Part shown: piece after piece, positions 10,199 through 26,987 of the stretch
Numbering within the stretch: the first letter of the stretch is position 1
Layout of the letters: every line of letters starts with the position of its first letter
Origin: Burkholderiaceae bacterium
Lineage (GTDB): Bacteria; Pseudomonadota; Gammaproteobacteria; Burkholderiales; Burkholderiaceae_F
Direction: 5' to 3'
Assembly: GCA_013813185.1 (NCBI GenBank)
Contig: JACCSD010000114.1
Coordinates: 1 to 26,987 of the forward strand
Length of the DNA: 26,987 bases
The notes under the pieces: model-generated
Told to the model about the DNA's origin: nothing
Seen by the model: the letters and a program-made list of their open reading frames with translations, nothing else
Databases searched by the model: none
Position numbers and translations under genes: made by a program

Positions 10199-10269
10199 TC
10201 CAGGTTCTCCTAGCCGTTAGGGGTGGTGACGCGATAATTTTTTATCGCCATTTGCTGCTGCAGCGCATC

Positions 10270-10284
10270 GCACTAATTGTGCCA
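10270..10284 (-). promoter_or_regulatory. sigma54 -24/-12 promoter of glnA
   Basis: Minus strand TGGCACAATTAGTGC, GG-N10-GC, about 70 nt upstream of the glnA ATG. Confidence 0.8.
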
Positions 10285-10324
10285 AAACCGAACAACTGCC
10301 GGCCGAGGGCTGCACTACCTCGTG

Positions 10325-17210: not shown

Positions 17211-19520
17211 ATGGACTCGCAAGATCCCCCGGTTGTATCGAACGTCGCTGAGCCGGCAGCGCCCGGCTTTGCGCGGCGTGCGGCACAGGCACTCAGGAAA
17301 GCCGTCTGGCGCTCTGAGCCGAACGCCGAACCTGCGAGCGCAGTGGCCACGGTCGCGACTCTGACTGACCGGGTCAAAAAGTATCTGCCGTCCGCCGACG
17401 TTCAAAAAATCAAGGACGCCTTTCGCTTCTCGGACGAGGCGCATCTAGGCCAATTCCGGCGCAGCGGTGCACCCTACATCACACATCCGCTCGCGGTCGC
17501 GGAGATACTGACCGAATGGCGCCTGGACGGCGCGGCGATCCAGGCGGCGCTGCTGCACGACGTCATCGAAGACTGCGGTGTCGAGCAAGCGCGATTGATC
17601 GAGCGATTCGGTTCGACCGTCGCCGATCTGGTCGACGGCGTGTCGAAACTGGATCGACTCCAGTTCTCGTCAACCGAGCAGGCCCAGGCCGAGAACTTTC
17701 GCAAGATGTTGCTGGCGATGGCGCGCGATGTGCGCGTGATGCTGATCAAGCTTGCCGATCGGCTGCACAACATGCGCACGCTCGAAGCAGTCGATTCCGA
17801 GCGCCGCCGCCGTATCGCGCGTGAAACCTTGGAAATTTATGCGCCGATTGCGCACCGGCTCGGGTTGAACACATTGTTTCGAGAGCTCGAGGAGCTGAGC
17901 TTCGAGCACCTGTATCCGCTGCGCTACCAAGTGCTCAATCGAGCGGTGCTGGCGGCGCGTGGTAACCGGCGCGAAGTGCTGGGCAAGATGATGGTGGCCG
18001 TGCGCAAGTCGTTATCGGATGCAAAGCTGCGCGCGGAAGTGCAGGGGCGCGAGAAGACCGTCTATGGCATCTACCGAAAAATGGCCGACAAGCGGCTTTC
18101 GTTTTCTCAGGTGCTCGACATCTATGGCTTTCGCGTCGTGGTCGACACACTGGCGCAGTGTTATCTGGCGCTGGGTACGCTGCACAGTCTCTACAAGCCC
18201 GTGCCGGGCAAGTTCAAGGACTACATCGCGATTCCCAAAGTCAACGGCTACCAGTCCCTGCACACGACGCTGATCGGGCCCTACGGCACGCCGGTGGAGT
18301 TTCAGATCCGCACCAAGGACATGCACCATGTGGCCGAAACCGGCGTCGCCGCCCACTGGCTATACAAAGACGACGATTCCGATCTTTCGGAACTGCAATC
18401 GCGAACGCATCAGTGGCTGCAATCGCTGTTGGAAATCCAGCGTCAGACGGGTGACTCGAGCGAGTTTCTCGAACACATCAAAGTCGATCTATTTCCTGAC
18501 AAGGTTTACATCTTCACTCCGAAGGGCCGAATCGTGGCGCTGCCGCGGGATGCGACCCCCGTCGACTTTGCCTACAGCATCCACACCGACGTTGGCAACA
18601 AGACCGTTGCCGCCCGCATCAACAACGAGATCCAGCCGCTGCGCACGCAACTGAAAAACGGTGACATGGTTGAAATCGTGACCGGGCCCGAAGCGAAACC
18701 TAATCCGGCGTGGGTCTCATTTGTCAGAACCGGCAAGGCGCGCTCGGAGATTCGCCACTTTCTGCGCACGATGAAGTTCGGCGAGTCCGTCGAACTGGGT
18801 GAGCGTCTGCTTGCGCAAGCTGCTCAGCAATTCAGCCTGGCACTTAGCGATATCGGCGAAGAACAGTGGAGCAAGGTCCTCAAACAATCGGACAACAAGT
18901 CACGCGAAGACTTGCTGGCCGATATCGGTCTGGGCCGCAAGCTGCCGGCCGTTGTCGCACGCCAACTTGCATTGGATTCGGCCGAGAGCGAGGATCCTCA
19001 AAGTGCGGGCCCGATTGCGCAGGCCAGCCAGGTACCGGTCGTTGTGCGCGGCACCGAAGGCATGGCCGTGCAGATGGCGACCTGCTGCCATCCGATCCCG
19101 GACGATGCAATCGTCGGGCACATCCGTAAAGGGCAGGGATTGGCGGTGCATCAGGCCGAGTGTTTACACGCGCAGCGCGCTCGACGCGCCGATCCGGATC
19201 GCTGGATCGAATTGCAGTGGGCCAAGGATCCGGCGAGCAATTTTACGGTCGGGGTCGACGTCAGCGCGCTCAACGAGCGCGGTGTACTGGGCCGGATCGC
19301 AGTCGCCATCGCCGAAGCCGAGTCGAACATCCTCAACGTGCATCTTGAAGACGAGGACGCCAGGCTCGCGTTGATTCATTTCAAAATTCAAGTTCACGAT
19401 CGCGTGCACCTGGCGCGCGTGATCCGCGCCTTACGCCGCGTCAAGAATGTGCAGCAGATCGTACGGCCGCGCGGGGGCGGCACAAGTAACGCGCGCGCAC
19501 ACGCTCACGATCTGGCGTAA
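17211..19520 (+). CDS. spoT: Bifunctional (p)ppGpp synthetase/hydrolase (long RSH)
   Basis: Hydrolase motifs RRSGAPYITHP and LLHDVIED, synthetase KFKDYIAIPKVNGYQSLHT, TGS (FTPKG), C-terminal ACT. Start at ATG 17211 preferred over 17112, which overlaps rpoZ. Confidence 0.96.
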   Translation: MDSQDPPVVSNVAEPAAPGFARRAAQALRKAVWRSEPNAEPASAVATVATLTDRVKKYLPSADVQKIKDAFRFSDEAHLGQFRRSGAPYITHPLAVAEILTEWRLDGAAIQAALLHDVIEDCGVEQARLIERFGSTVADLVDGVSKLDRLQFSSTEQAQAENFRKMLLAMARDVRVMLIKLADRLHNMRTLEAVDSERRRRIARETLEIYAPIAHRLGLNTLFRELEELSFEHLYPLRYQVLNRAVLAARGNRREVLGKMMVAVRKSLSDAKLRAEVQGREKTVYGIYRKMADKRLSFSQVLDIYGFRVVVDTLAQCYLALGTLHSLYKPVPGKFKDYIAIPKVNGYQSLHTTLIGPYGTPVEFQIRTKDMHHVAETGVAAHWLYKDDDSDLSELQSRTHQWLQSLLEIQRQTGDSSEFLEHIKVDLFPDKVYIFTPKGRIVALPRDATPVDFAYSIHTDVGNKTVAARINNEIQPLRTQLKNGDMVEIVTGPEAKPNPAWVSFVRTGKARSEIRHFLRTMKFGESVELGERLLAQAAQQFSLALSDIGEEQWSKVLKQSDNKSREDLLADIGLGRKLPAVVARQLALDSAESEDPQSAGPIAQASQVPVVVRGTEGMAVQMATCCHPIPDDAIVGHIRKGQGLAVHQAECLHAQRARRADPDRWIELQWAKDPASNFTVGVDVSALNERGVLGRIAVAIAEAESNILNVHLEDEDARLALIHFKIQVHDRVHLARVIRALRRVKNVQQIVRPRGGGTSNARAHAHDLA

Positions 19521-20053
19521 TTCACGTCGAGCACTTCGAGCGTTTCAGTGCCGGCTGGCGTGCGCAACGTGACCGTGTCGCCGGCGTATGCCTTCAGCAA
19601 CGCGCCAGCGATCGGCGAAATCCAGCTGACAAACCCTCGCGCCGGATCGACTTCGTCGACGCCAACAATGGTCACCGTGTTCTCGCTGCCATCGGGCAGC
19701 ACATAGCGCACAGTGGCGCCGAAAAAGACTTGCTCGGTGACTTCGCGAGCGGCGGGATCGACAACTTCGGCCACATCCAGCCGCTTGGTTAGGAACCGGA
19801 TGCGTCGGTCGATCTCTCTGAGGCGCTTTTTGCCATAGATGTAGTCACCGTTTTCAGAGCGATCCCCGTTAGAGGCGGCCCAGGAAACGGTTCGCACAAC
19901 CTCTGGCCGGTCCGTATTCAACAATTGCAGAAGTTCATCTTTCAAACGCTGATGCCCGGCGGGCGTGATGTAGTTGCGCACACCGGCAATCTGCGGCGGG
20001 TTAAGCTCATCGTCGTCCTGATCGTCGGACTCTTTGACGAATGCCTTACTCAT
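19505..20053 (-). CDS. greB: Transcription elongation factor GreB
   Basis: MSKAF, WAASNGDRSENGDYIYGKKRLREIDRRIRFL, ISWISPIA-type C-terminal motif (VSWISPIA). Confidence 0.96.
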   Translation of the reverse strand: MSKAFVKESDDQDDDELNPPQIAGVRNYITPAGHQRLKDELLQLLNTDRPEVVRTVSWAASNGDRSENGDYIYGKKRLREIDRRIRFLTKRLDVAEVVDPAAREVTEQVFFGATVRYVLPDGSENTVTIVGVDEVDPARGFVSWISPIAGALLKAYAGDTVTLRTPAGTETLEVLDVNYARS

Positions 20054-20133
20054 TACGGACGACCCGCATCTTCCGTTATGCCGTACGCCGAGAGCCCGCG
20101 AAGACCGCTGGCGAGGTGCTAACGTACTCGTAA

Positions 20134-20397
20134 CTACTTCGGATTGTTTTTCCCCGTCTTGATGTCCTCAGGGCGGTCAAGCAGCGGATCCTCGTCCTTT
20201 GCACGTTCTCGTCCGACCTGTTCCGCACGTTCGAGCTGTTGCTGCTCGCCGTCGCTTTGGGGCTGTGCGTCGCGGGCGGCTTCCGCAACGTCTTCCTCCT
20301 GGACAAACTCACGCGTCGCCTCGTTGTACCGGCGCGCAGCTTTGTGATCACCTTCGCCTTGCACTTCGCTTTTCGTGTTTGGTTGATTGTCTGCCAT
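20134..20397 (-). CDS. Small hydrophilic hypothetical protein (87 aa)
   Basis: MADNQPNTKSEVQGEGDHKAARRYNEATREFV...; GGAG RBS before ATG 20397; highly charged. Confidence 0.75.
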   Translation of the reverse strand: MADNQPNTKSEVQGEGDHKAARRYNEATREFVQEEDVAEAARDAQPQSDGEQQQLERAEQVGRERAKDEDPLLDRPEDIKTGKNNPK

Positions 20398-20419
20398 CAC
20401 GTCTCCCAAGTAAATAAAG

Positions 20420-20447
20420 GCGACGCGGCCCTTATCAGCCGCGTCGC
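20420..20447 (-). terminator. Hairpin downstream of the BON gene (terminator-like)
   Basis: Perfect 10-bp stem GCGACGCGGC/GCCGCGTCGC with 8-nt loop, followed on the minus strand by CTTTATTTA. Confidence 0.55.
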
Positions 20448-20471
20448 TCAAACAAGAATGCCTGCTTGCTG

Positions 20472-20927
20472 CTACGGCTTCTTGGCCGGCGGTGTTGGGT
20501 TGTTCGGCATCGGTGTGGCGGCCGGGGCAGTGCCCGGCGGCTGCGTGCCCGGCACGATGCCCGGGGCGGCATTCGGGCTCGAGGCCAGGTTGTTCTCGAC
20601 GCGCTGCACGCCCGAAACGCCCTTGGCGACTTCGACCGCGCGCGCCAACTGGGCCGGAGTGTCGACGGTCCCCGTCAGCTTGACGGTGCCGCTGTTGGAA
20701 TCGACGTTTATCTGCGTACCTTTAACCATCTCGTCGGCAATCAACGCAGCCTTCACTTTAGTAGTAAGCGCGGCATTGTCGACCACATTGGCGGTGGCGT
20801 TGGTTGCCTGTTTGGCTTCCGTGCGCACTTCCTGGCGTTCGGAACGCGAGCATGCGGCGAGAACGAGCGCGGCTGCGGTGGTCACGACCACCGCTCGCAA
20901 TGTGTGACGTGCAGCTTTCTGCATCAT
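20472..20927 (-). CDS. BON-domain lipoprotein (OsmY-like)
   Basis: RBS GAGGAG. Lipoprotein signal ending LVLAA-C. BON domain DNAALTTKVKAALIAD...INVDSNSGTVKLTGTV...AVEVAKGVSGVQRVENNL, then a Pro-rich tail. Confidence 0.9.
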   Translation of the reverse strand: MMQKAARHTLRAVVVTTAAALVLAACSRSERQEVRTEAKQATNATANVVDNAALTTKVKAALIADEMVKGTQINVDSNSGTVKLTGTVDTPAQLARAVEVAKGVSGVQRVENNLASSPNAAPGIVPGTQPPGTAPAATPMPNNPTPPAKKP

Positions 20928-21032
20928 TTTGTGGCTCCTCTTTGGGTAAGTTAATTTATTCGAGCCCTTGCTTGCATGTCGACGGGCCCATGCCTCGCAC
21001 AACAACAAGCTTCGGCGCAAGCAATCAGAAGT

Positions 21033-21048
21033 CGCAAGTTACATGCCC
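21033..21048 (-). promoter_or_regulatory. sigma54 -24/-12 motif upstream of the BON gene
   Basis: Minus strand GGGCATGTAACTTGCG, GG-N10-GC with TTGC. Confidence 0.7.
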
Positions 21049-21085
21049 GGCCGGCGACCGGGACGGAGCATTCAGGATCAGGCGC

Positions 21086-22465
21086 TCAGGCGGCGCGGCG
21101 CTCTTTCGGAGGCTGATTTCCCTCGCCGCCGTATTCCTTCAGCCGGTTATAAAGGGTCTTCAAACTCACGCCCAATGCGGCAGCGGTCCGTTCCTTGTGG
21201 CCCTCAAAGTGTTCGAGCGTCGCAAAAACCAGGTCACGTTCCACATCAGCGAGGGTAGTGCCGATCCGTACCGACAGGATCGACTCCGCGTTGCCGGCCG
21301 AAGAGCGCCCGGCTTGCAATTCGAGCCATTCATCACTGATCGTTGCGCCAGACGCCATCACATAGGCACGCTGCACGACATTGCGGAGCTCGCGCACGTT
21401 GCCCGGCCAGTCGTACTCGTTCATGCGTTCGTAAGCGCTCTTGCTCAAACGCTTTTCCTTGCCTTCTTCTTTGCAAATTTCCGCCAGGAAGTGGTCCGCG
21501 AGTAGCGCGATGTCCTCTCTTCTTTCGCGCAGTGGCGGCAAACGGATAGGAAAGACATTCAATCGATACAGAAGATCCTCGCGCAGCTTGCCGTCGACCA
21601 CGGCACGCTCGGGCACCCGGTTGGTCGCGCCTAGTACCCGCACATCGGCACGCTGCGTTTCGGTCGATCCGACCCGGTTGAAGGTGCCGGTCTCCAAAAC
21701 CCGCAGCAGCTTGACCTGAAGGTCAGGCGGCATTTCCGTGACTTCATCCAGGAAGAGTGTTCCGCCGTGGGCACGCTCAAAGAAGCCAAGATGCTGCCGA
21801 TTGGCACCGGTGAAGCTGCCTTTCTCGTGACCGAAAATTTCGCTCTCCATTAAATGGGGCGAAATGGCGCCGCAGTTGATCGCGAGAAACGGCCGGCTGC
21901 GACGCCGACTCAGCGAGTGAATCGTTTGCGCCACCAATTCCTTGCCGGTGCCGCTTTCGCCCTGTATGAGCACCGTCACCGCGGTTGCCGCCACGCGTGA
22001 CACTTGCTCGTAAACGCGCTTCATCGACGGCGAGCCGCCCCACATATCTCCGAATCGCCCGCTGCGATCGAGTTCAACGCGCAGATCGGAAATTTCTGCC
22101 TGTAACTGCCCAGGCCGCATCACTCGTGCCAGGATGCCCTGCACTTGACCGGGGCTCACCGGCTTGATCAAGTAGTCCGTCGCGCCCAAGCGCAACGCTT
22201 CAATCGAGGTTTCTAGACTTGCGTGCCCGGTGATCAATACGACTTCGGTGTCCGCGAGCGCTGCTTTGTCGTTGAAGAGCTCGGTTCCCTTGCCGTCGGG
22301 CAAGACGAGATCGAGGAACACCACATCCGGAGCGCTGGTCGCAAGCTGGCGTCGCGCGTCGCGCATGGTGCGTGCAGTCGAAGCGGTGAACCCCTGGCTG
22401 GCGACAAGTTCCGCCAGCATTTCCGCCGTATCGGAATCGTCGTCGACGATGAGTGCGTGACTCAT
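21086..22465 (-). CDS. sigma54-dependent response regulator (receiver-AAA+-Fis HTH enhancer-binding protein)
   Basis: ALIVDDD, FLDLVLPDG receiver; GESGTGKE, EIFGHEKGSFTGA, LFLDEVTEM, WPGNVRELRN; C-terminal TAAALGVSLKTLYNRL. Confidence 0.95.
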   Translation of the reverse strand: MSHALIVDDDSDTAEMLAELVASQGFTASTARTMRDARRQLATSAPDVVFLDLVLPDGKGTELFNDKAALADTEVVLITGHASLETSIEALRLGATDYLIKPVSPGQVQGILARVMRPGQLQAEISDLRVELDRSGRFGDMWGGSPSMKRVYEQVSRVAATAVTVLIQGESGTGKELVAQTIHSLSRRRSRPFLAINCGAISPHLMESEIFGHEKGSFTGANRQHLGFFERAHGGTLFLDEVTEMPPDLQVKLLRVLETGTFNRVGSTETQRADVRVLGATNRVPERAVVDGKLREDLLYRLNVFPIRLPPLRERREDIALLADHFLAEICKEEGKEKRLSKSAYERMNEYDWPGNVRELRNVVQRAYVMASGATISDEWLELQAGRSSAGNAESILSVRIGTTLADVERDLVFATLEHFEGHKERTAAALGVSLKTLYNRLKEYGGEGNQPPKERRAA

Positions 22466-22476
22466 TGCTTCCCCTT

Positions 22477-22554
22477 GTTGTCGCAGGCAACGCTCGGCAG
22501 CTGCGCACTTAGTTGAGCGCCAACGATACCGCAGTTGACGTTGTCGTCGGCAAC
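22477..22554. promoter_or_regulatory. Pair of 15-bp imperfect palindromes (candidate operator/enhancer sites)
   Basis: GTTGTCGCAGGCAAC (22477-22491) and GTTGTCGTCGGCAAC (22540-22554), 63 bp apart. Confidence 0.45.
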
Positions 22555-22652
22555 AGGGAATGTGTTAAACGATCAAGGGAGGATGCCGCAGCCGACGAGT
22601 GGCCGCCTGCGCGCCGCACTGCCCGGGCGTGAATGCGCTAGCGGGCTGGCCC

Positions 22653-22682
22653 AAAAAAAAAGAGCAATAGGGAACTGCCCTA
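22653..22682 (-). terminator. Intrinsic terminator after the 80-aa ORF
   Basis: Minus strand TAGGGCAGTTCCCTATTGCTC followed by T9. Can fold as TAGGG/CCCTA or AGGGCAG/TTGCTCT. Confidence 0.55.
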
Positions 22683-22922
22683 CACGACGTTGCGACCCGC
22701 CTCGACCACCGTCAGCAGAAAATTATGGCGTCCGACAGCGTGTGCAAGGTCCGCAGCGTAGGCGGCCGCCGCCGGCAACGAACTCAGCACCGCACCGGCA
22801 ATCAGCTTGCCCTGATAACCGACAACCCAGCACCCCTTGCCGAGCCTCGCGAGCAAGAATTCATTAGAGCTCGACTTCGCTGCCACTGAGCGTTTAGCGC
22901 GCGCCTGATCCGATGCTTTCAT
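22680..22922 (-). CDS. Small hypothetical protein (80 aa)
   Basis: AGGAG 5 nt before the ATG, near-consensus sigma54 promoter 40 nt upstream, terminator at the stop codon. Confidence 0.75.
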   Translation of the reverse strand: MKASDQARAKRSVAAKSSSNEFLLARLGKGCWVVGYQGKLIAGAVLSSLPAAAAYAADLAHAVGRHNFLLTVVEAGRNVV

Positions 22923-22961
22923 CGTTGCTCCTAAGTTTCGGTTACCAGCGTGAGGATTGTA

Positions 22962-22977
22962 AGCAACGTGCGTGCCA
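22962..22977 (-). promoter_or_regulatory. sigma54 -24/-12 promoter (consensus match)
   Basis: Minus strand TGGCACGCACGTTGCT = TGGCACG-N4-TTGCW. Confidence 0.85.
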
Positions 22978-22998
22978 GCATGCAGTTCGCCGCTGTAC

Positions 22999-23014
22999 GG
23001 GCATGCAGTTTGCT
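22999..23014 (+). promoter_or_regulatory. sigma54 -24/-12 motif, copy 1
   Basis: GGGCATGCAGTTTGCT, GG-N10-GC. Confidence 0.7.
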
Positions 23015-23025
23015 TTTCGTTGTAG

Positions 23026-23041
23026 GGGCATGTAGTTTGCT
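23026..23041 (+). promoter_or_regulatory. sigma54 -24/-12 motif, copy 2
   Basis: GGGCATGTAGTTTGCT, GG-N10-GC; 27 bp downstream of copy 1. Confidence 0.7.
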
Positions 23042-23137
23042 TTTCTCAGCCCACTGCGGTTCGCTGGTGCGTGAAGCGTCCGCTACGTCACTGTTTACTA
23101 AACGAGGCACTTGACCAACCAACTAGAGGTAAACGTA

Positions 23138-23410
23138 ATGATTAACTTCATCATTTGGCTCATCGTGGGTGGCGTCGTTGGCTGGCTGGCCAGTTTGATC
23201 ATGCGGACCGATGCGCAACAGGGAATTTTCCTCAACATTATCGTCGGCATCGTGGGAGCTGCGCTGGGCGGATGGTTGATTTCTCCGCTGCTGGGAATGC
23301 CTTCAATCAACCAGGATGCGTTTAGTTTTGGAGCTTTGGTCGTGTCGCTGATTGGCGCGGTCATCCTGCTCGCGATCGTCAATTTGTTTCGTCGCGGCTC
23401 AGTTCGTTAA
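23138..23410 (+). CDS. GlsB/YeaQ/YmgE family stress-response membrane protein
   Basis: FIIWLIVGGVVGWLASLIM, NIIVGIVGAALGGWL, SLIGAVILLAI; RBS GAGGT; start at ATG 23138. Confidence 0.92.
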   Translation: MINFIIWLIVGGVVGWLASLIMRTDAQQGIFLNIIVGIVGAALGGWLISPLLGMPSINQDAFSFGALVVSLIGAVILLAIVNLFRRGSVR

Positions 23411-23492
23411 GCCCGAGCCGCTGTGAGTGACCTGCACGCGTGAGCGGGCCGGCATTGGAAGAACACATTAACCATAAACAACGGGAGCAAAG

Positions 23493-23837
23493 ATGGAAAC
23501 CACCACTCCGAATACCGGCAATCTTGGTTCAACGGGCAGCACCGGAAAACTCAACCCAAACCAAGCGGCGGACCGCGCGCACACCACGGTGGATCGAGTC
23601 GCCCAAGGGGCGCACGACACTGTCGACCGTCTTGCCTCCAAGGCTGCGCCCATGCTGGATCGCGCGCGATCAGCCGCCACCGATGCGCAAGACACGCTGT
23701 ATGCCAAGTACGATGACTTCATGGCGATGGAAGAAGAATGGGCAGAATCAGCGCGCGATCAAATCCGCGCCCACCCATTGGCCGTCGTAGGCATCGCGCT
23801 GATGGCGGGATTGCTGATCGGCCGCTTGTCCCGCTAG
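23493..23837 (+). CDS. DUF883/ElaB/YqjD-like tail-anchored protein
   Basis: Helical repeats (AHTTVDRVAQGAHDTVDRLA) and C-terminal anchor IRAHPLAVVGIALMAGLLIGRL; RBS GGGAG. Confidence 0.8.
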   Translation: METTTPNTGNLGSTGSTGKLNPNQAADRAHTTVDRVAQGAHDTVDRLASKAAPMLDRARSAATDAQDTLYAKYDDFMAMEEEWAESARDQIRAHPLAVVGIALMAGLLIGRLSR

Positions 23838-23863
23838 TTGCGAAACACGGCTTCAAACTGAAC

Positions 23864-24385
23864 GTGGACATCGCAAGCGATACGGCGGTAGGTGGAGGTG
23901 GTGCGTCGCCGCCGGCAGCGGGCGCAAGCGTGGACCCGCGTGTGCACGCGGCTTCGGGGGGCTCGTCTGCTTCAGCCAGGCAGTCGAGCCGTCGCTCTGC
24001 GCGCGATTCCGGTTCGCCTCCCCTGCGCCCAGGCTTTGCGCAGTTCATTCGTGAGATCCGCGCCGCGTTCGGCGCGCGTTTCCATTTACTCGAACTCGAG
24101 GCGAAACGCGCGGCGTGGTCCGCCGCGTACATGCTGGCGTTTGGTGTCGGAGCGGCTCTGCTTGGAGTCACGGCCTGGCTGATCCTGATCGCGGGACTTG
24201 TCTATGGGGCAGTAGTGGCAGGCGTGCCGTGGATAGTTGCAGGCATCGTGGCCATTGCTCTGCACGCGGTGGCCGTTTTTATGCTGGTGCGCGCAATCCG
24301 GGGCATGGTTGACAACCTGACATTCGCGGCGACGCGTCGCACCTTGGCGGAATCTTCAACGGCCCACGATGACAGCGGCGCTTGA
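23864..24385 (+). CDS. Phage-holin-family (YqjE-like) membrane protein
   Basis: RFHLLELEAKRAA followed by two TM helices; position directly after a DUF883 gene, as in yqjD-yqjE. Start uncertain (GTG 23864 or 23930). Confidence 0.75.
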   Translation: MDIASDTAVGGGGASPPAAGASVDPRVHAASGGSSASARQSSRRSARDSGSPPLRPGFAQFIREIRAAFGARFHLLELEAKRAAWSAAYMLAFGVGAALLGVTAWLILIAGLVYGAVVAGVPWIVAGIVAIALHAVAVFMLVRAIRGMVDNLTFAATRRTLAESSTAHDDSGA

Positions 24386-25184
24386 CTTCCTGAGGACCGA
24401 CATCGAAGCGGCTGAACGAGCCGTTCGATTGGCCGATCAGCGCGCCGCGAACACGGGTCGGGCCTTACGCGCGAGCTGGAAGTCCAAGGGCCCGATGATC
24501 ATGGGTGCAGCAGGAGCAGCGTTGCTTCTACGCCAGGTGCTCAGGGCAAGACGGAAGGTGCCGAGAGACCGCGTGCGCGGGCAGGGACTTGGCGGATGGC
24601 TTCGCTCATACGGGCCATACGTGTCGGCGCTTGGACCGCAGGCGATCACTGCGATCAGTGCGTTGGTCGCTGCGATGGTCGCCAAAAACGCGAAGAAGGC
24701 TCTGGCGAGCGCAGCACATGTAGATCTGGATCGTTTCGTGGGCAGCTGGTTCGAGATCGCCCGCCTGCCGCATGGAACGGATGCGCAATGCGTATCGGAT
24801 GCGCGCGCTACCTATGCAAGGACCGAAGACGGTCTTCGTTTGTTGAGCCTGTGCCGGCGCGAAAACGGAAGCACCAAGCGCTCGACGGGCCGCGCGAAGC
24901 TGACCGACGACGCGACGCAGGCTCGCTTCAAGATTTCTTATTCGCACTCGGCACTCGATGTAATTCCGTTCGTGTGGTCGGACTACACGATCATTGATGT
25001 TGCCGATGACTACAGCACCGCGATGGTCGGTGCAGCCGATCGCAAACACCTTTGGCTGCTTTCCCGGCAGCCGTCGATCGGAGATTCAGTCCGGCAAGAC
25101 TTCCTGAACAAGGCGCGTGCACAGGGGTTCGATACCAGCGCGCTCGTGCTCACGCGGCATTCCGCCGCGAGCACGCAGAGCTAG
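24369..25184 (+). CDS. Lipocalin (Blc-like) with about 110-aa N-terminal extension
   Basis: Lipocalin motifs VDLDRFVGSWFEIARLP, DYTIIDVADDY, LWLLSRQP plus a Cys pair (QCVSD, SLCRR). N-terminus has no lipobox. Overlaps the upstream gene by 17 nt. Confidence 0.88.
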   Translation: MTAALDFLRTDIEAAERAVRLADQRAANTGRALRASWKSKGPMIMGAAGAALLLRQVLRARRKVPRDRVRGQGLGGWLRSYGPYVSALGPQAITAISALVAAMVAKNAKKALASAAHVDLDRFVGSWFEIARLPHGTDAQCVSDARATYARTEDGLRLLSLCRRENGSTKRSTGRAKLTDDATQARFKISYSHSALDVIPFVWSDYTIIDVADDYSTAMVGAADRKHLWLLSRQPSIGDSVRQDFLNKARAQGFDTSALVLTRHSAASTQS

Positions 25185-25205
25185 AGTCTTAGAAGGAGAA
25201 CGTCG

Positions 25206-25403
25206 ATGTCATTTTTCGTTCGTGCCGCCTTGCTGGGCGGCCTTGCCTATGTCGTTTCTCGCGCGGTCCGGAACAGCCAGTATTCGCTGGATTCTTCGCG
25301 GTCCGAAACTCAACGGCTTGCGCGCACGCCAGGCTCTGGTGAAGAAAACCTGAAGACGTCCAGCGATCAACGCTCGGCAATGGATACTTCCGCGCCAGTA
25401 TGA
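25206..25403 (+). CDS. Small hypothetical protein (65 aa)
   Basis: RBS AAGGAG; N-terminal hydrophobic segment (FFVRAALLGGLAYVV) then Ser-rich polar tail; stop codon runs into a terminator. Confidence 0.65.
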   Translation: MSFFVRAALLGGLAYVVSRAVRNSQYSLDSSRSETQRLARTPGSGEENLKTSSDQRSAMDTSAPV

Positions 25404-25431
25404 AAAATGGGGACCCGGGGTCCCCATTTTT
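25403..25431. terminator. Bidirectional intrinsic terminator
   Basis: AAAAATGGGGACC-CGG-GGTCCCCATTTTT, perfect 13-bp inverted repeat between convergent genes. Confidence 0.85.
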
Positions 25432-25444
25432 GCAAGTGCAACCC

Positions 25445-25906
25445 TTAGCGGCCTTTGTTTCGCGAACCACTCAAAGTATCGCGATCCGAACCCGTAGATT
25501 CAGATGAACCTTGGGGTCGATTCGTTTGCTGATCCGTCTTCGACGAACTGCTCGTTCCATATTGGGTGTCCAACGCACCCTGGCGCAACTTGTCGGAAGA
25601 CTGTTCGCCGGCTTGGTTCATCTCCGGAGACTCGCCGTCGTCATCGTTGGCTCCCGCACCCTGCTGGTTGCTCGTTTGACCCCGCTGCGAGCCTTTCTGT
25701 GATCCGGGGTTGCGAGAGTCAGAAGACTCACCCCCGGATCCTTGATCCGATTGGCGCGCGCCCGGCTGTCCTTGCGATCCTGGATTGGAACCCGGTTGGC
25801 CGTGCGACTCTTGGCCACCTTGCTGCTCGGGATTTTTTCCGCTTTGCGAAGTGTTCTGCTGCTGCTGGTCCTTCTGTTCCGGCTTTGGCTGATTCTGCTT
25901 GGTCAT
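25445..25906 (-). CDS. Low-complexity hydrophilic (Q/G/S/N-rich) protein, likely intrinsically disordered
   Basis: 153 aa with no W, F, C, I or V; RBS AGGAG; sigma54 motif upstream; terminator downstream. Confidence 0.8.
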   Translation of the reverse strand: MTKQNQPKPEQKDQQQQNTSQSGKNPEQQGGQESHGQPGSNPGSQGQPGARQSDQGSGGESSDSRNPGSQKGSQRGQTSNQQGAGANDDDGESPEMNQAGEQSSDKLRQGALDTQYGTSSSSKTDQQTNRPQGSSESTGSDRDTLSGSRNKGR

Positions 25907-25975
25907 GTGTAGCTCCTATGGTGTCAAAGCGGGCGATTGCTCGGAATGACTCCGCATCACCCGTAGAAAACTTCC

Positions 25976-25991
25976 CGCAAGCGTTGTGCCT
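25976..25991 (-). promoter_or_regulatory. sigma54 -24/-12 promoter
   Basis: Minus strand AGGCACAACGCTTGCG, GG-N10-GC, 70 nt upstream of ATG 25906. Confidence 0.75.
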
Positions 25992-26032
25992 ACACCCTGA
26001 AGCGCGGGATGGAGTGCGCAATTCATCGCCTC

Positions 26033-26048
26033 GGGAATGCGGCTTGCC
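26033..26048 (+). promoter_or_regulatory. Weaker sigma54-like motif upstream of the HisKA gene
   Basis: GGGAATGCGGCTTGCC, GG-N10-GC with TTGC but a non-consensus -24 element. Confidence 0.35.
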
Positions 26049-26120
26049 GCACTACCCCGCGCTTTGGTGCACCGAGCAGCGCTTAAACCCAACGCGCAAT
26101 CCGGCATCTGCTGACGCTAA

Positions 26121-26819
26121 ATGAAGACGATCGCCGTTGTTGCCGACACCGACCGGCGATGTGGTGCGTACTGGCTCGCAAATCTTGATGCTGCGGGTAG
26201 CACGGCATTGATGGCGGCCGTCGTCAGCCGCTTCAATCATGATCTGCGCACCCCGCTGAACACTATTCTCGGCTGGACGCACTTGTTGCAGCAAGGCGGC
26301 CTCGATGCCGTTCGCGCCAAACATGTCGCCGACGTCATCGCCCGCAACTCGCGCGATCAAACGCAGCTACTGGAAGATTTTGTCGATGATGGCCGCGCCA
26401 TCCTTGGCGCATTGGAATTGCAACGGGTTGCGCTGAACATTGACCACCTGCTGGCAGACGCGATCACGCGTCTGAATCCGTTGCTCACCCTGCACGGCGT
26501 CTCGCTGAACACGAACTTCGACACCACCGACGTCTCAGTCACTGGCGATGTGCGCCGTCTGACGCGATTGGCATACCGGTTGCTGGTCATCGTGACGCGG
26601 CGCGCGCGCGAGGCGACAAAGATCAAGGTCGAAACGGATGTCGATCGCGGGCAGTACGTGCTGGCGCTGTCGGGAACCGCGCACGAGCCGGATTGGTCGG
26701 ACGCGGCGCTGTTGGATTTGCGTGTCAGCACATTGGTCGCGGCGCTGCACGAAGGCGAATTGCAAGTCGGTGCTGACGCAACGCGACCTTGCATCATGCT
26801 CAGATTGCCGTGCAGCTGA
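26121..26819 (+). CDS. Histidine-kinase-derived protein: intact HisKA, degenerate HATPase, no sensor domain
   Basis: H-box NHDLRTPLNTILGWTHLL. C-terminal domain follows HATPase layout (GDVRRL..., LHEGEL, LRLP) but lacks the N-box Asn, DxGxG and GxGLG. Start may be ATG 26211. Confidence 0.8.
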   Translation: MKTIAVVADTDRRCGAYWLANLDAAGSTALMAAVVSRFNHDLRTPLNTILGWTHLLQQGGLDAVRAKHVADVIARNSRDQTQLLEDFVDDGRAILGALELQRVALNIDHLLADAITRLNPLLTLHGVSLNTNFDTTDVSVTGDVRRLTRLAYRLLVIVTRRAREATKIKVETDVDRGQYVLALSGTAHEPDWSDAALLDLRVSTLVAALHEGELQVGADATRPCIMLRLPCS

Positions 26820-26855
26820 CGCCGCACGCCGAGGTTGACTTGTTAGGAGTTTTCG

Positions 26856-26987
26856 ATGCCGGACAGCACGCTTGATTTGGAACTATCAACTCCTCCCGTC
26901 ACTGACAAGGGGCACGGAACGCGCGCGCTTGGCCCCAGCGATACGTCGGACAGCGGCAGCGACCTGCAGGGCCCGGGCATCTACGAG
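26856..26987 (+). CDS. Hypothetical protein, 5' part only (runs off the window)
   Basis: RBS AGGAG; MPDSTLDLELSTPPVTDKGHGTRALGPSDTSDSGSDLQGPGIYE...; no stop before the window end. Confidence 0.65.
   Translation, partial: MPDSTLDLELSTPPVTDKGHGTRALGPSDTSDSGSDLQGPGIYE

Follow-up and report, generated by a model that had tools for sequence, protein, structure and literature searches.

A conserved gene island with putative sigma-54 stress promoters, two enhancer-binding activators, and a second rpoN in a Burkholderiaceae genus in which rpoS was not detected

Promoters of the sigma-54 type stay silent until an ATPase fires, whereas RpoS acts by competition for core polymerase. In E. coli, osmY, elaB, yqjD-yqjE, blc, otsA, and katE belong to the RpoS regulon (see also PMC10734530, PMC3416271). 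A second sigma-54 gene, rpoN2, has been described in Ralstonia and in Burkholderia pseudomallei. Ralstonia rpoN2 was expressed only with rpoN1 and its role was called "enigmatic" (PMC4371752), and it has no known phenotype (PMC4371752, PMC4676750). Lundgren et al. listed RSp1667 and RSp1668 as rpoN2 activators, and 4 of the 13 Ralstonia EBPs carry GSFTGA or GAYTGA (PMC4676750). B. pseudomallei possesses both RpoS and RpoN2, and there RpoN2 activates katE, a gene that carries an RpoN box (PMC4745423). Here, we analyzed a stretch of 26,987 nucleotides from a Burkholderiaceae bacterium (GenBank assembly GCA_013813185.1, contig JACCSD010000114.1), which is called the window below. It corresponds to contig C308 in a metagenome-assembled genome that totals 2.28 Mb over 375 contigs, and its closest relatives are uncultured Burkholderiaceae/betaproteobacteria. 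The interval 20134-26987 of the window holds a cluster of stress-type genes, which a preliminary description had read as a self-contained sigma-54 module. We consider it likely that this interval makes up the left half of a ~20-kb conserved island that runs a stress/dormancy programme through sigma-54. In a literature search, no paper was found describing this regulon.

Four conserved putative sigma-54 promoters, one of which is duplicated here, and one weak motif precede five units of the cluster (Table 1). The units are a BON gene followed by a hydrophilin gene; p80, perhaps followed by the gene for the bacterial enhancer-binding protein (bEBP) bEBP-A; an operon of YmgE, DUF883-like, YqjE-like, lipocalin, and p65 genes; the gene for a 153-aa hydrophilin (hyd153); and the gene for a HisKA-only protein. 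All six motifs were present at the positions of the preliminary description, and every one was oriented toward a downstream gene. Their GG and GC were exactly 10 nt apart in a TGGCAC/TTGCW-like context, and the predicted 5' untranslated regions (UTRs) were 30-92 nt long. The variant GGGCATG-N4-TTGC, reported to be shared by three motifs, was indeed found as exact copies at 21034-48(-), 22999-23013(+), and 23026-40(+). When one mismatch was allowed, it gave 5 matches in the window against 0.89 expected. The core GGCAY-N5-TTGC gave 7 window matches against 0.91 expected, and 0 of 100 shuffles reached 7. Five of these copies were intergenic within the cluster, each facing a gene. In the gaps inside the YmgE operon, no sigma-54 motif scoring >=5 with a position weight matrix (PWM) was found.

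The motifs were also kept in relatives. In five aligned genomes, the GGCA and TTGC blocks were invariant for BON, p80, YmgE, and hyd153, and the remaining intergenic DNA diverged. In 19 genus genomes, conservation in the p80-YmgE intergenic region was confined to the ribosome-binding sites and the cores of the two back-to-back promoters, whose spacing ranged from ~25 to 65 nt. The core of the BON promoter was unchanged in 10 genus genomes, while flanks and spacers varied. The GGGCATG spelling was not conserved; the kept portion was GGCA(T/C). The second tandem YmgE promoter was found only in the window's own genome, and relatives have a single copy. The weak HisKA-facing motif, which overlaps the palindrome TGCGGCTTGCCGCA, was kept in 4/5 genomes, with PWM scores of 6.9-10.6 in L006, L009, and L008; it was missing in L007. 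Taken together, the cluster motifs very probably function as sigma-54 promoters of the stress-type genes behind them. A further motif at 26568-85 inside the HisKA gene (PWM 15.6) was set aside; it was kept only in L006 and G002, which are the nearest relatives, not in L007-L009, and is probably a chance product of coding sequence.

A PWM scan of the whole genome, as proposed earlier, gave a divided result. Hits >=14 were no commoner than in Markov shuffles, but their placement was biased to non-coding DNA: 25 of the 47 lay in the non-coding 13.7% of the genome (6.4 expected, p = 2e-10). In the 6.85 kb of the cluster, five intergenic hits >=11.5 were found against 0.21 expected (Poisson p = 3e-6), and the p80 promoter was the third-best PWM site genome-wide (18.0). 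The best intergenic sites elsewhere stood before two YmgE paralogues, the only CsbD gene, and the genes for a GSP26-like PNPOx and LigD. Also among them were sites before glnA and the genes for YflT-domain proteins, an OmpA/glycine-zipper lipoprotein, and an AsmA protein. The motif preceded 3/3 Transgly_assoc (YmgE) genes and both single-BON genes, not the housekeeping DolP-like double-BON gene. It was found at a fixed distance before the GSP26 gene in 18/18 genus genomes. It also preceded LigD in 13/16 orthologues, compared with 0/9 copies of the LigD paralogue. These paralogue controls support the specificity of the motif.

glnA is an expected NtrC target and served as a sanity check for the scan. 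Its putative promoter lies in the window as the sigma-54 motif TTGGCACAATTAGTGCGA at 10268-10285 (-), 69 nt upstream of glnA, and is a positive control of the matrix. The window segment 5532-10285 holds glnA, a histidine-kinase-sized open reading frame (ORF), and an NtrC-type bEBP, which were read as ntrB/ntrC by position and size alone. In the stress promoters of the window and of the unlinked loci, p80 excepted, the T at -26 was mostly missing, and V-GGCA stood in place of TGGCA. This could reflect a preference of RpoN2 or tunable weak promoters.

The cluster had been described as self-contained. This did not hold: the contig ends mid-island, a second activator and a second rpoN lie further along, and the regulon reaches unlinked genes. 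In contiguous relatives, the cluster is the left part of a conserved ~20-kb island. Conservation of the gene neighbourhood was borne out, since the island was continuous in nine contiguous genus genomes and in the annotated relative G002; in the nine, the two activators lay ~15 kb apart on one contig. In G002, where the order was pieced together from two stretches, the left part runs from the border genes spoT and greB through hydrophilin, BON, bEBP-A, and p80 to YmgE, DUF883-like, YqjE-like, lipocalin, and p65. The middle holds hydrophilin, HisKA-only, a 141-aa ORF, fumarase, DUF2383-like, GT4, a 283-aa ORF, YflT-like, a 186-aa ORF, and GT4. The right part holds an AI-2E transporter, bEBP-B, BON2, and rpoN2, up to a border of phoR-phoB-phoU-pst. 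In the window, the cluster likewise sits downstream of spoT and a greB-like gene, and contigs C125 and C276 of the same genome are the continuation of the island. At least 10 sigma-54 motifs were counted across the island, at least 5 of them beyond the end of the window contig.

Two complete rpoN genes were found in the window's genome. rpoN1 is at the canonical locus on C154, with hpf-like and ptsN-like genes downstream. rpoN2 is on C276, divergent from a gene for a small BON lipoprotein (BON2) and from the activator paralogue bEBP-B, which is 52% identical to bEBP-A. Sigma-54 motifs on C276 face both rpoN2, directly upstream of it, and BON2. RpoN2 is a complete sigma-54 with AID, CBD, and DBD, and its RpoN box is nearly identical to that of RpoN1. 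Three tRNA genes directly after rpoN2 (L086:6721-6987, on C276) mark the right border of the island. No integrase was seen. Both the tRNA border and the island-free sister genera would fit a gain or loss of the whole island in one piece.

The receiver-containing bEBP claimed for the cluster was confirmed by Pfam domains as REC-AAA+-HTH_8. bEBP-A has the loop GSFTGA, the receiver residues DD9-10, D52, T79, and K101, and the motifs GESGTGKE and LFLDEV. The genome encodes four bEBPs, namely NtrC, a GAFTGA-type bEBP on C289, and the two GSFTGA proteins of the island. Judged from its neighbours, we read the C289 protein as PilR-like. In a tree of 94 bEBPs, the activator family was separate from NtrC and from the C289 bEBP (SH-aLRT 100). 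The bEBP-A clade contains Comamonadaceae, Sphaerotilaceae, and Rhodocyclaceae, the bEBP-B clade contains Burkholderiaceae, Alcaligenaceae, and Aromatoleum, and a third clade consists of receiver-less partners. GSFTGA was found in place of GAFTGA in 81/94 bEBPs.

A second rpoN lay <=8 kb from a member of the activator family in 28/80 loci. At loci of the family, a sigma-54 motif preceded rpoN2 in 21 and otsA in 9; in fewer loci of other Burkholderiales, it preceded BON, DUF883, CsbD, PfpI, and glgA genes. C276 fits this RpoN2 module of Burkholderiales, with a complete second rpoN, an adjoining GSFTGA bEBP, and a sigma-54 motif upstream. The neighbours of the bEBP-A orthologue in Aquabacterium are a GSP26-like gene, a sigma-54-preceded single receiver, a DUF883 gene, and a hybrid kinase of PAS-HK-REC architecture.

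We propose the following circuit. A stress signal would act through a kinase to phosphorylate the receivers of both GSFTGA-type activators, with the HisKA-only protein perhaps serving as a phosphotransferase or phosphatase in the circuit. The activated hexamers would then remodel the sigma-54 holoenzyme at the cluster promoters, and induction of rpoN2, perhaps also of bEBP-A via the p80 promoter, would give positive feedback. The products would shield envelope, ribosomes, proteins, and DNA under desiccation, osmotic, and freezing stress and in non-growing cells. The circuit would thereby do in this genus the job that RpoS does elsewhere. Tentatively, and leaning slightly to doubt, we extend this to a wider proposal: RpoN2 and the GSFTGA activators may form an enhancer-dependent general stress/dormancy response of Burkholderiales, a third solution beside RpoS and EcfG/SigB, with a full takeover here after loss of rpoS and with rpoN2 autoinduction as a commitment switch. 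The mechanism class is textbook. Its use for a general-stress-type regulon with a sigma-54 paralogue of its own is not described in the literature searched.

A sigma-54-based stress programme would be an all-or-none, signal-gated design. What RpoN2 does in Ralstonia and Burkholderia has been an open question since 2015 (PMC4371752); the island and its relatives suggest a concrete candidate regulon: BON, YmgE, hydrophilins, CsbD, GSP26, and LigD, with otsA and katE in relatives. The two hydrophilins, p80, and p65 are candidate desiccation/freeze protectants.

The alternative that survived best accepts the promoters as real and has them served by housekeeping RpoN1 with bEBP-A or bEBP-B, RpoN2 being uninvolved, a competitor, or an antagonist. 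The two RpoN boxes are nearly the same, Ralstonia rpoN2 needs rpoN1 for its expression (PMC4371752), and an antagonistic role was suggested by Lundgren et al. (PMC4676750). In addition, the activator family was present with a single rpoN and RpoS in the genome G035, and in Cupriavidus, which has no rpoN2 (PMC4371752). Neither RpoN2 nor loss of RpoS is therefore required for the family, which weighs against the proposed circuit as well. However, RpoN2 is a complete protein, its gene recurs close to family members and carries its own sigma-54 motif in the loci counted above, and RpoN2 of B. pseudomallei controls katE positively (PMC4745423). We regard service by RpoN1 as unlikely, though with some weight.

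The cluster had also been proposed to work instead of RpoS, and this was upheld only for the genus. The check for rpoS (TIGR02394, cut-off 378.7 bits) found none in the window's genome, where the best hit was 150 bits. None of the 22 genus genomes, this one included, reached the cut-off, and five of the other 21 are 97-100% complete. The best hit in the genus was ~279 bits, to an open frame of 700-790 aa that was taken as RpoD. On the other side, the activator family coexists with RpoS in the relative G035, which has three family members and a single rpoN, and it occurs in loci of Burkholderiaceae, to which B. pseudomallei with its RpoS and RpoN2 belongs (PMC4745423). Of the other families of the order, 8/17 had rpoS, as did 1/3 sister genera. 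Each of these three sister genera has a single rpoN and no member of the activator family, and two of them lack both rpoS and the island. We conclude that the island is patchy, that only in this genus does it stand where RpoS would, and that it is no general replacement of RpoS.

The two sister genera without rpoS and island indicate that loss of RpoS does not demand the island. They lend weight to a narrower explanation, in which the genes serve a single two-component pathway that responds to envelope, osmotic, or desiccation stress (cf. Psp, ZraSR) and are no stand-in for RpoS. It is in line with this that the window products are mostly small membrane or periplasmic proteins and hydrophilins. 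The predicted regulon as a whole is broader, however. It extends to functions in the cytoplasm and in DNA repair, with CsbD, YflT, GSP26-like PNPOx, LigD, fumarase, and glycosyltransferases, which are general-stress members in other bacteria, and relatives add otsA, glgA, PfpI, and katE (PMC4745423). We consider the narrow response unlikely.

The 5' leader of the BON gene at 20934-21022 (-) (AGGCAy-GGGCCC...GACATGCAAGCAAGGGCTC...AATTAACTTA) was nearly invariant in 10 genomes, and its conservation exceeded that of the sigma-54 promoter itself. It holds the sigma-70-like element of Table 1. Two RNA-library contigs over BON end at 20942-20955, just downstream of the sigma-70-like -10 and ~70 nt short of the sigma-54 start, and the depth over the sigma-54 5' UTR was low; contig ends are, however, unreliable evidence. 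RNAalifold gave a GGGCCC/GGGCUC hairpin in the leader with no covariation, and no Rfam family was matched within 19500-26987. Candidate roles of the leader are those of an RNA element, a protein-binding site, or a second promoter. As a side observation, its GGGCUC stretch could pair with the ribosome-binding GAGGAGCC. That the genes are mainly transcribed from sigma-70 promoters, with GG-N10-GC kept for another reason or for marginal use, is highly improbable: relatives do not retain the -10 hexamer as such, the region has 2 sigma-70-like sites against 1.6 expected, only the two sigma-54 cores are conserved in the p80/YmgE region, and unlinked stress genes have the sigma-54 motif at a constant distance upstream, whereas their housekeeping paralogues lack it.

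Besides the BON contig ends and the single-rpoN genomes, several points weigh against the sigma-54 stress island proposed here. The PWM was approximate and made from a published consensus, not a curated matrix. The BON and hyd153 motifs have modest scores of 11.6, a level met ~150-480 times in the genome; their weight therefore comes from position and conservation. The genome is 84% complete. A search for RNA runs matching this DNA found none, and the promoters have no support from transcript 5' ends; the assignment of a given sigma-54 and activator to each promoter is tentative. Enhancer searches were negative: paired GTAA-N3-TTAC with one mismatch gave 1 window match against 1.6 expected, the local palindrome TGCGG-N4-CCGCA was not enriched, and dyad/k-mer enrichment in 16 upstream regions gave none above multiple-testing noise. 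The back-to-back promoters leave scant intergenic room for an upstream activating sequence. Upstream of the GSP26 promoter, a block of 190 nt was strikingly conserved but was rejected as an enhancer. It is the cobalamin riboswitch of the divergent gene (104.5 bits, L133:2071-2305, on contig C247) and stands back-to-back with the sigma-54 promoter in front of GSP26.

Near-identical cluster DNA was found in metagenomes of 17 studies, from soil, rock, hypolith, sand, and salt lake. In ice metatranscriptome libraries, contigs of relatives, 85-92% alike, lay over most cluster genes, covering the BON, bEBP, p80, YmgE, DUF883-like, YqjE-like, lipocalin, and hydrophilin genes and leaving the HisKA gene almost uncovered. 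DNA carry-over is possible in these libraries, and as assembled contigs of relatives they allow no mapping of starts.

The protein encoded next to the weak motif had been described as His-phosphotransfer-like. It is not a histidine-phosphotransfer (HPt) protein, since its fold is DHp plus CA-like and not a four-helix HPt. The HisKA-only family, of which no description is known, comprises at least 241 proteins, all of ~232 aa with PF00512 alone. His40 and the H-box do not vary within it, and it lacks the N, G1, and G2 boxes. The AlphaFold model (pLDDT 90.8) showed a full DHp and CA-like core, with DivL (4q20), HK853, and RetS as the top structural matches; we therefore read the protein as a pseudo-kinase-like core with no sensor. 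The dedicated phosphorelay claimed for the cluster fared in part: the bEBP and the HisKA protein are both encoded there, but support for their pairing was weak and the relay is unproven. A predicted complex of the HisKA protein with the bEBP-A receiver scored 0.37 against 0.00 for the best control and was rated weak. The mark for such complexes was reached by 51/78 solved complexes and 2/108 mismatches, and among passes <=0.60, wrong ones outnumber right ones. The runs agreed in >=91% of contacts, with a partner pLDDT of 81. A kinase-receiver pair can also score through memorised examples, and passing does not tell which member of the family binds. The protein may transfer phosphate, remove it, or only bind. 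Across the family, the N-terminal motif D-x-R-C/F-G-x-x-W...LD is invariant, and a Cys close to the C-terminus (TRPC) is nearly so; in a protein lacking a sensor domain, these might serve as a redox or ligand switch.

In the case of the other genes, the relatives proposed earlier for the cargo did not all stand. The BON protein does not qualify as an OsmY equivalog, as it scored 62 bits with NCBIfam OsmY (NF007858) against a cut-off of 174 and has one BON domain, not two. The ElaB/YqjD assignment is below the Pfam threshold, and the DUF883 N-terminal domain (PF05957) was not found in the window's genome. The lipocalin scored 92.5 bits with the Blc subfamily against a cut-off of 267. The order of DUF883-like, YqjE-like, and a third gene resembles what we take to be the E. 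coli order yqjD-yqjE-yqjK. The true start of the YqjE-like gene is probably downstream of the ElaB-like stop, and that of the 86-aa protein is probably ATG 20394-20392 rather than TTG 20451. p80 matched no Pfam or NCBIfam family, and its structure-atlas hits were all <0.85 and uninformative. In the otherwise variable p80-bEBP-A spacer, a 17-nt block CAACTGCGGTATCGTTG (window 22530-22560 (-), ~95 nt upstream of the bEBP-A start codon) was kept in five genomes and is a candidate promoter or autoregulatory site.

Table 1. Genes and sequence elements of the cluster, with positions in the window (GRAVY, grand average of hydropathy).
Feature	Position	Strand	Remarks
86-aa acidic hydrophilic protein	20134..20394	-	No family; GRAVY -1.75
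GC-rich hairpin with T-rich tail	20420..20447	-	Between BON and hydrophilin genes
Single-BON-domain lipoprotein-like protein, OsmY-like	20472..20933	-	Pfam BON 62 bits
Sigma-70-like element TCGACA-18-TAAATT	20953..20982	-	In BON 5' leader; 9/12 match
Putative sigma-54 promoter, BON-hydrophilin unit	21033..21048	-	GGGCATG-N4-TTGC; PWM 11.6; predicted start near 21024
bEBP-A, response-regulator enhancer-binding protein	21086..22465	-	REC + sigma-54 AAA+ + HTH_8 (Pfam)
Hairpin with T9	22661-22681		After p80
p80, 80-aa basic protein	22680..22922	-	Directly upstream of bEBP-A, same strand
Putative sigma-54 promoter, p80 (possibly bEBP-A by read-through)	22962..22977	-	Near-consensus; CTGGCACGCACGTTGCTT; PWM 18.0
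Putative tandem sigma-54 promoters, YmgE operon	22999..23041 (22999-23014, 23026-23041)	+	27 bp apart; PWM 15.0, 14.3
GlsB/YeaQ/YmgE-family membrane protein	23111..23410	+	Pfam Transgly_assoc 51.8 bits; likely start ATG 23138
Tail-anchored DUF883/ElaB-like protein	23493..23837	+	PF19029 (C-terminal anchor) 21.3 bits, cut-off 27 (below threshold)
YqjE-like membrane protein (Phage_holin_3_6)	23738..24385	+	30 bits, cut-off 28.4
Lipocalin (Blc-like)	24369..25184	+	Lipocalin_2 126 bits; ~110-aa N-terminal extension; overlaps YqjE-like gene end
p65, 65-aa small basic protein	25206..25403	+	No family; last operon gene
153-aa hydrophilin (hyd153)	25445..25906	-	GRAVY -1.95; 16% Gly; 86% polar/charged
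Putative sigma-54 promoter, hyd153	25976..25991	-	GGCA...GCTTGCGG; PWM 11.6
Weak sigma-54-like motif facing HisKA gene	26033..26048	+	GGGAATG-N4-TTGC; PWM 5.2
HisKA-only protein, sensorless histidine-kinase core, 232 aa	26121..26819	+	DHp with invariant His40; CA-like domain without N, G1, G2 boxes
ORF start (141 aa in G002)	26856..26987	+	Precedes class II fumarase/aspartase gene in relatives

The components of the island were compared with known systems. The HisKA-only protein resembles the non-canonical cores of the ChpT, DivL, and RetS type; it has a DHp and CA-like fold, no sensor domain, and no recognisable ATP-binding boxes. It keeps the phospho-acceptor His, whereas DivL does not. bEBP-A shares REC, AAA+, and HTH_8 with the bEBPs of the NtrC/ZraR/AtoC type, along with intact receiver residues and Walker motifs. 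However, its scores with the NCBIfam equivalogs were far below the cut-offs (best AtoC, 413 against 714), and it differs in the GSFTGA loop, in the back-to-back promoter layout, and in that no upstream activating site was recognised in the searches made.

The rpoN2 on the megaplasmid of Ralstonia solanacearum (RSp1671) is, as here, a second rpoN off the canonical locus with adjoining bEBPs. In both cases rpoN2 appears to be under sigma-54 control, as indicated here by the upstream motif and in Ralstonia by rpoN1-dependent expression (PMC4371752). In Ralstonia and B. pseudomallei, RpoS is present, and no regulon or phenotype is known past katE. Here, in contrast, we found a ~20-kb island with two receiver-containing paralogous activators in a genus in which no rpoS was found; the comparison does not assume that the RpoN2 proteins of the different lineages are orthologous. 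With the RpoS regulon of E. coli, the island shares BON, YmgE-type, YqjE-type, and lipocalin families, and relatives add trehalose and catalase genes. The two also agree in presumed role, namely in cells that are stressed or no longer growing. The control logic is different: sigma-54 needs an ATPase activator, whereas RpoS is a sigma-70-family factor that is set by synthesis and proteolysis.

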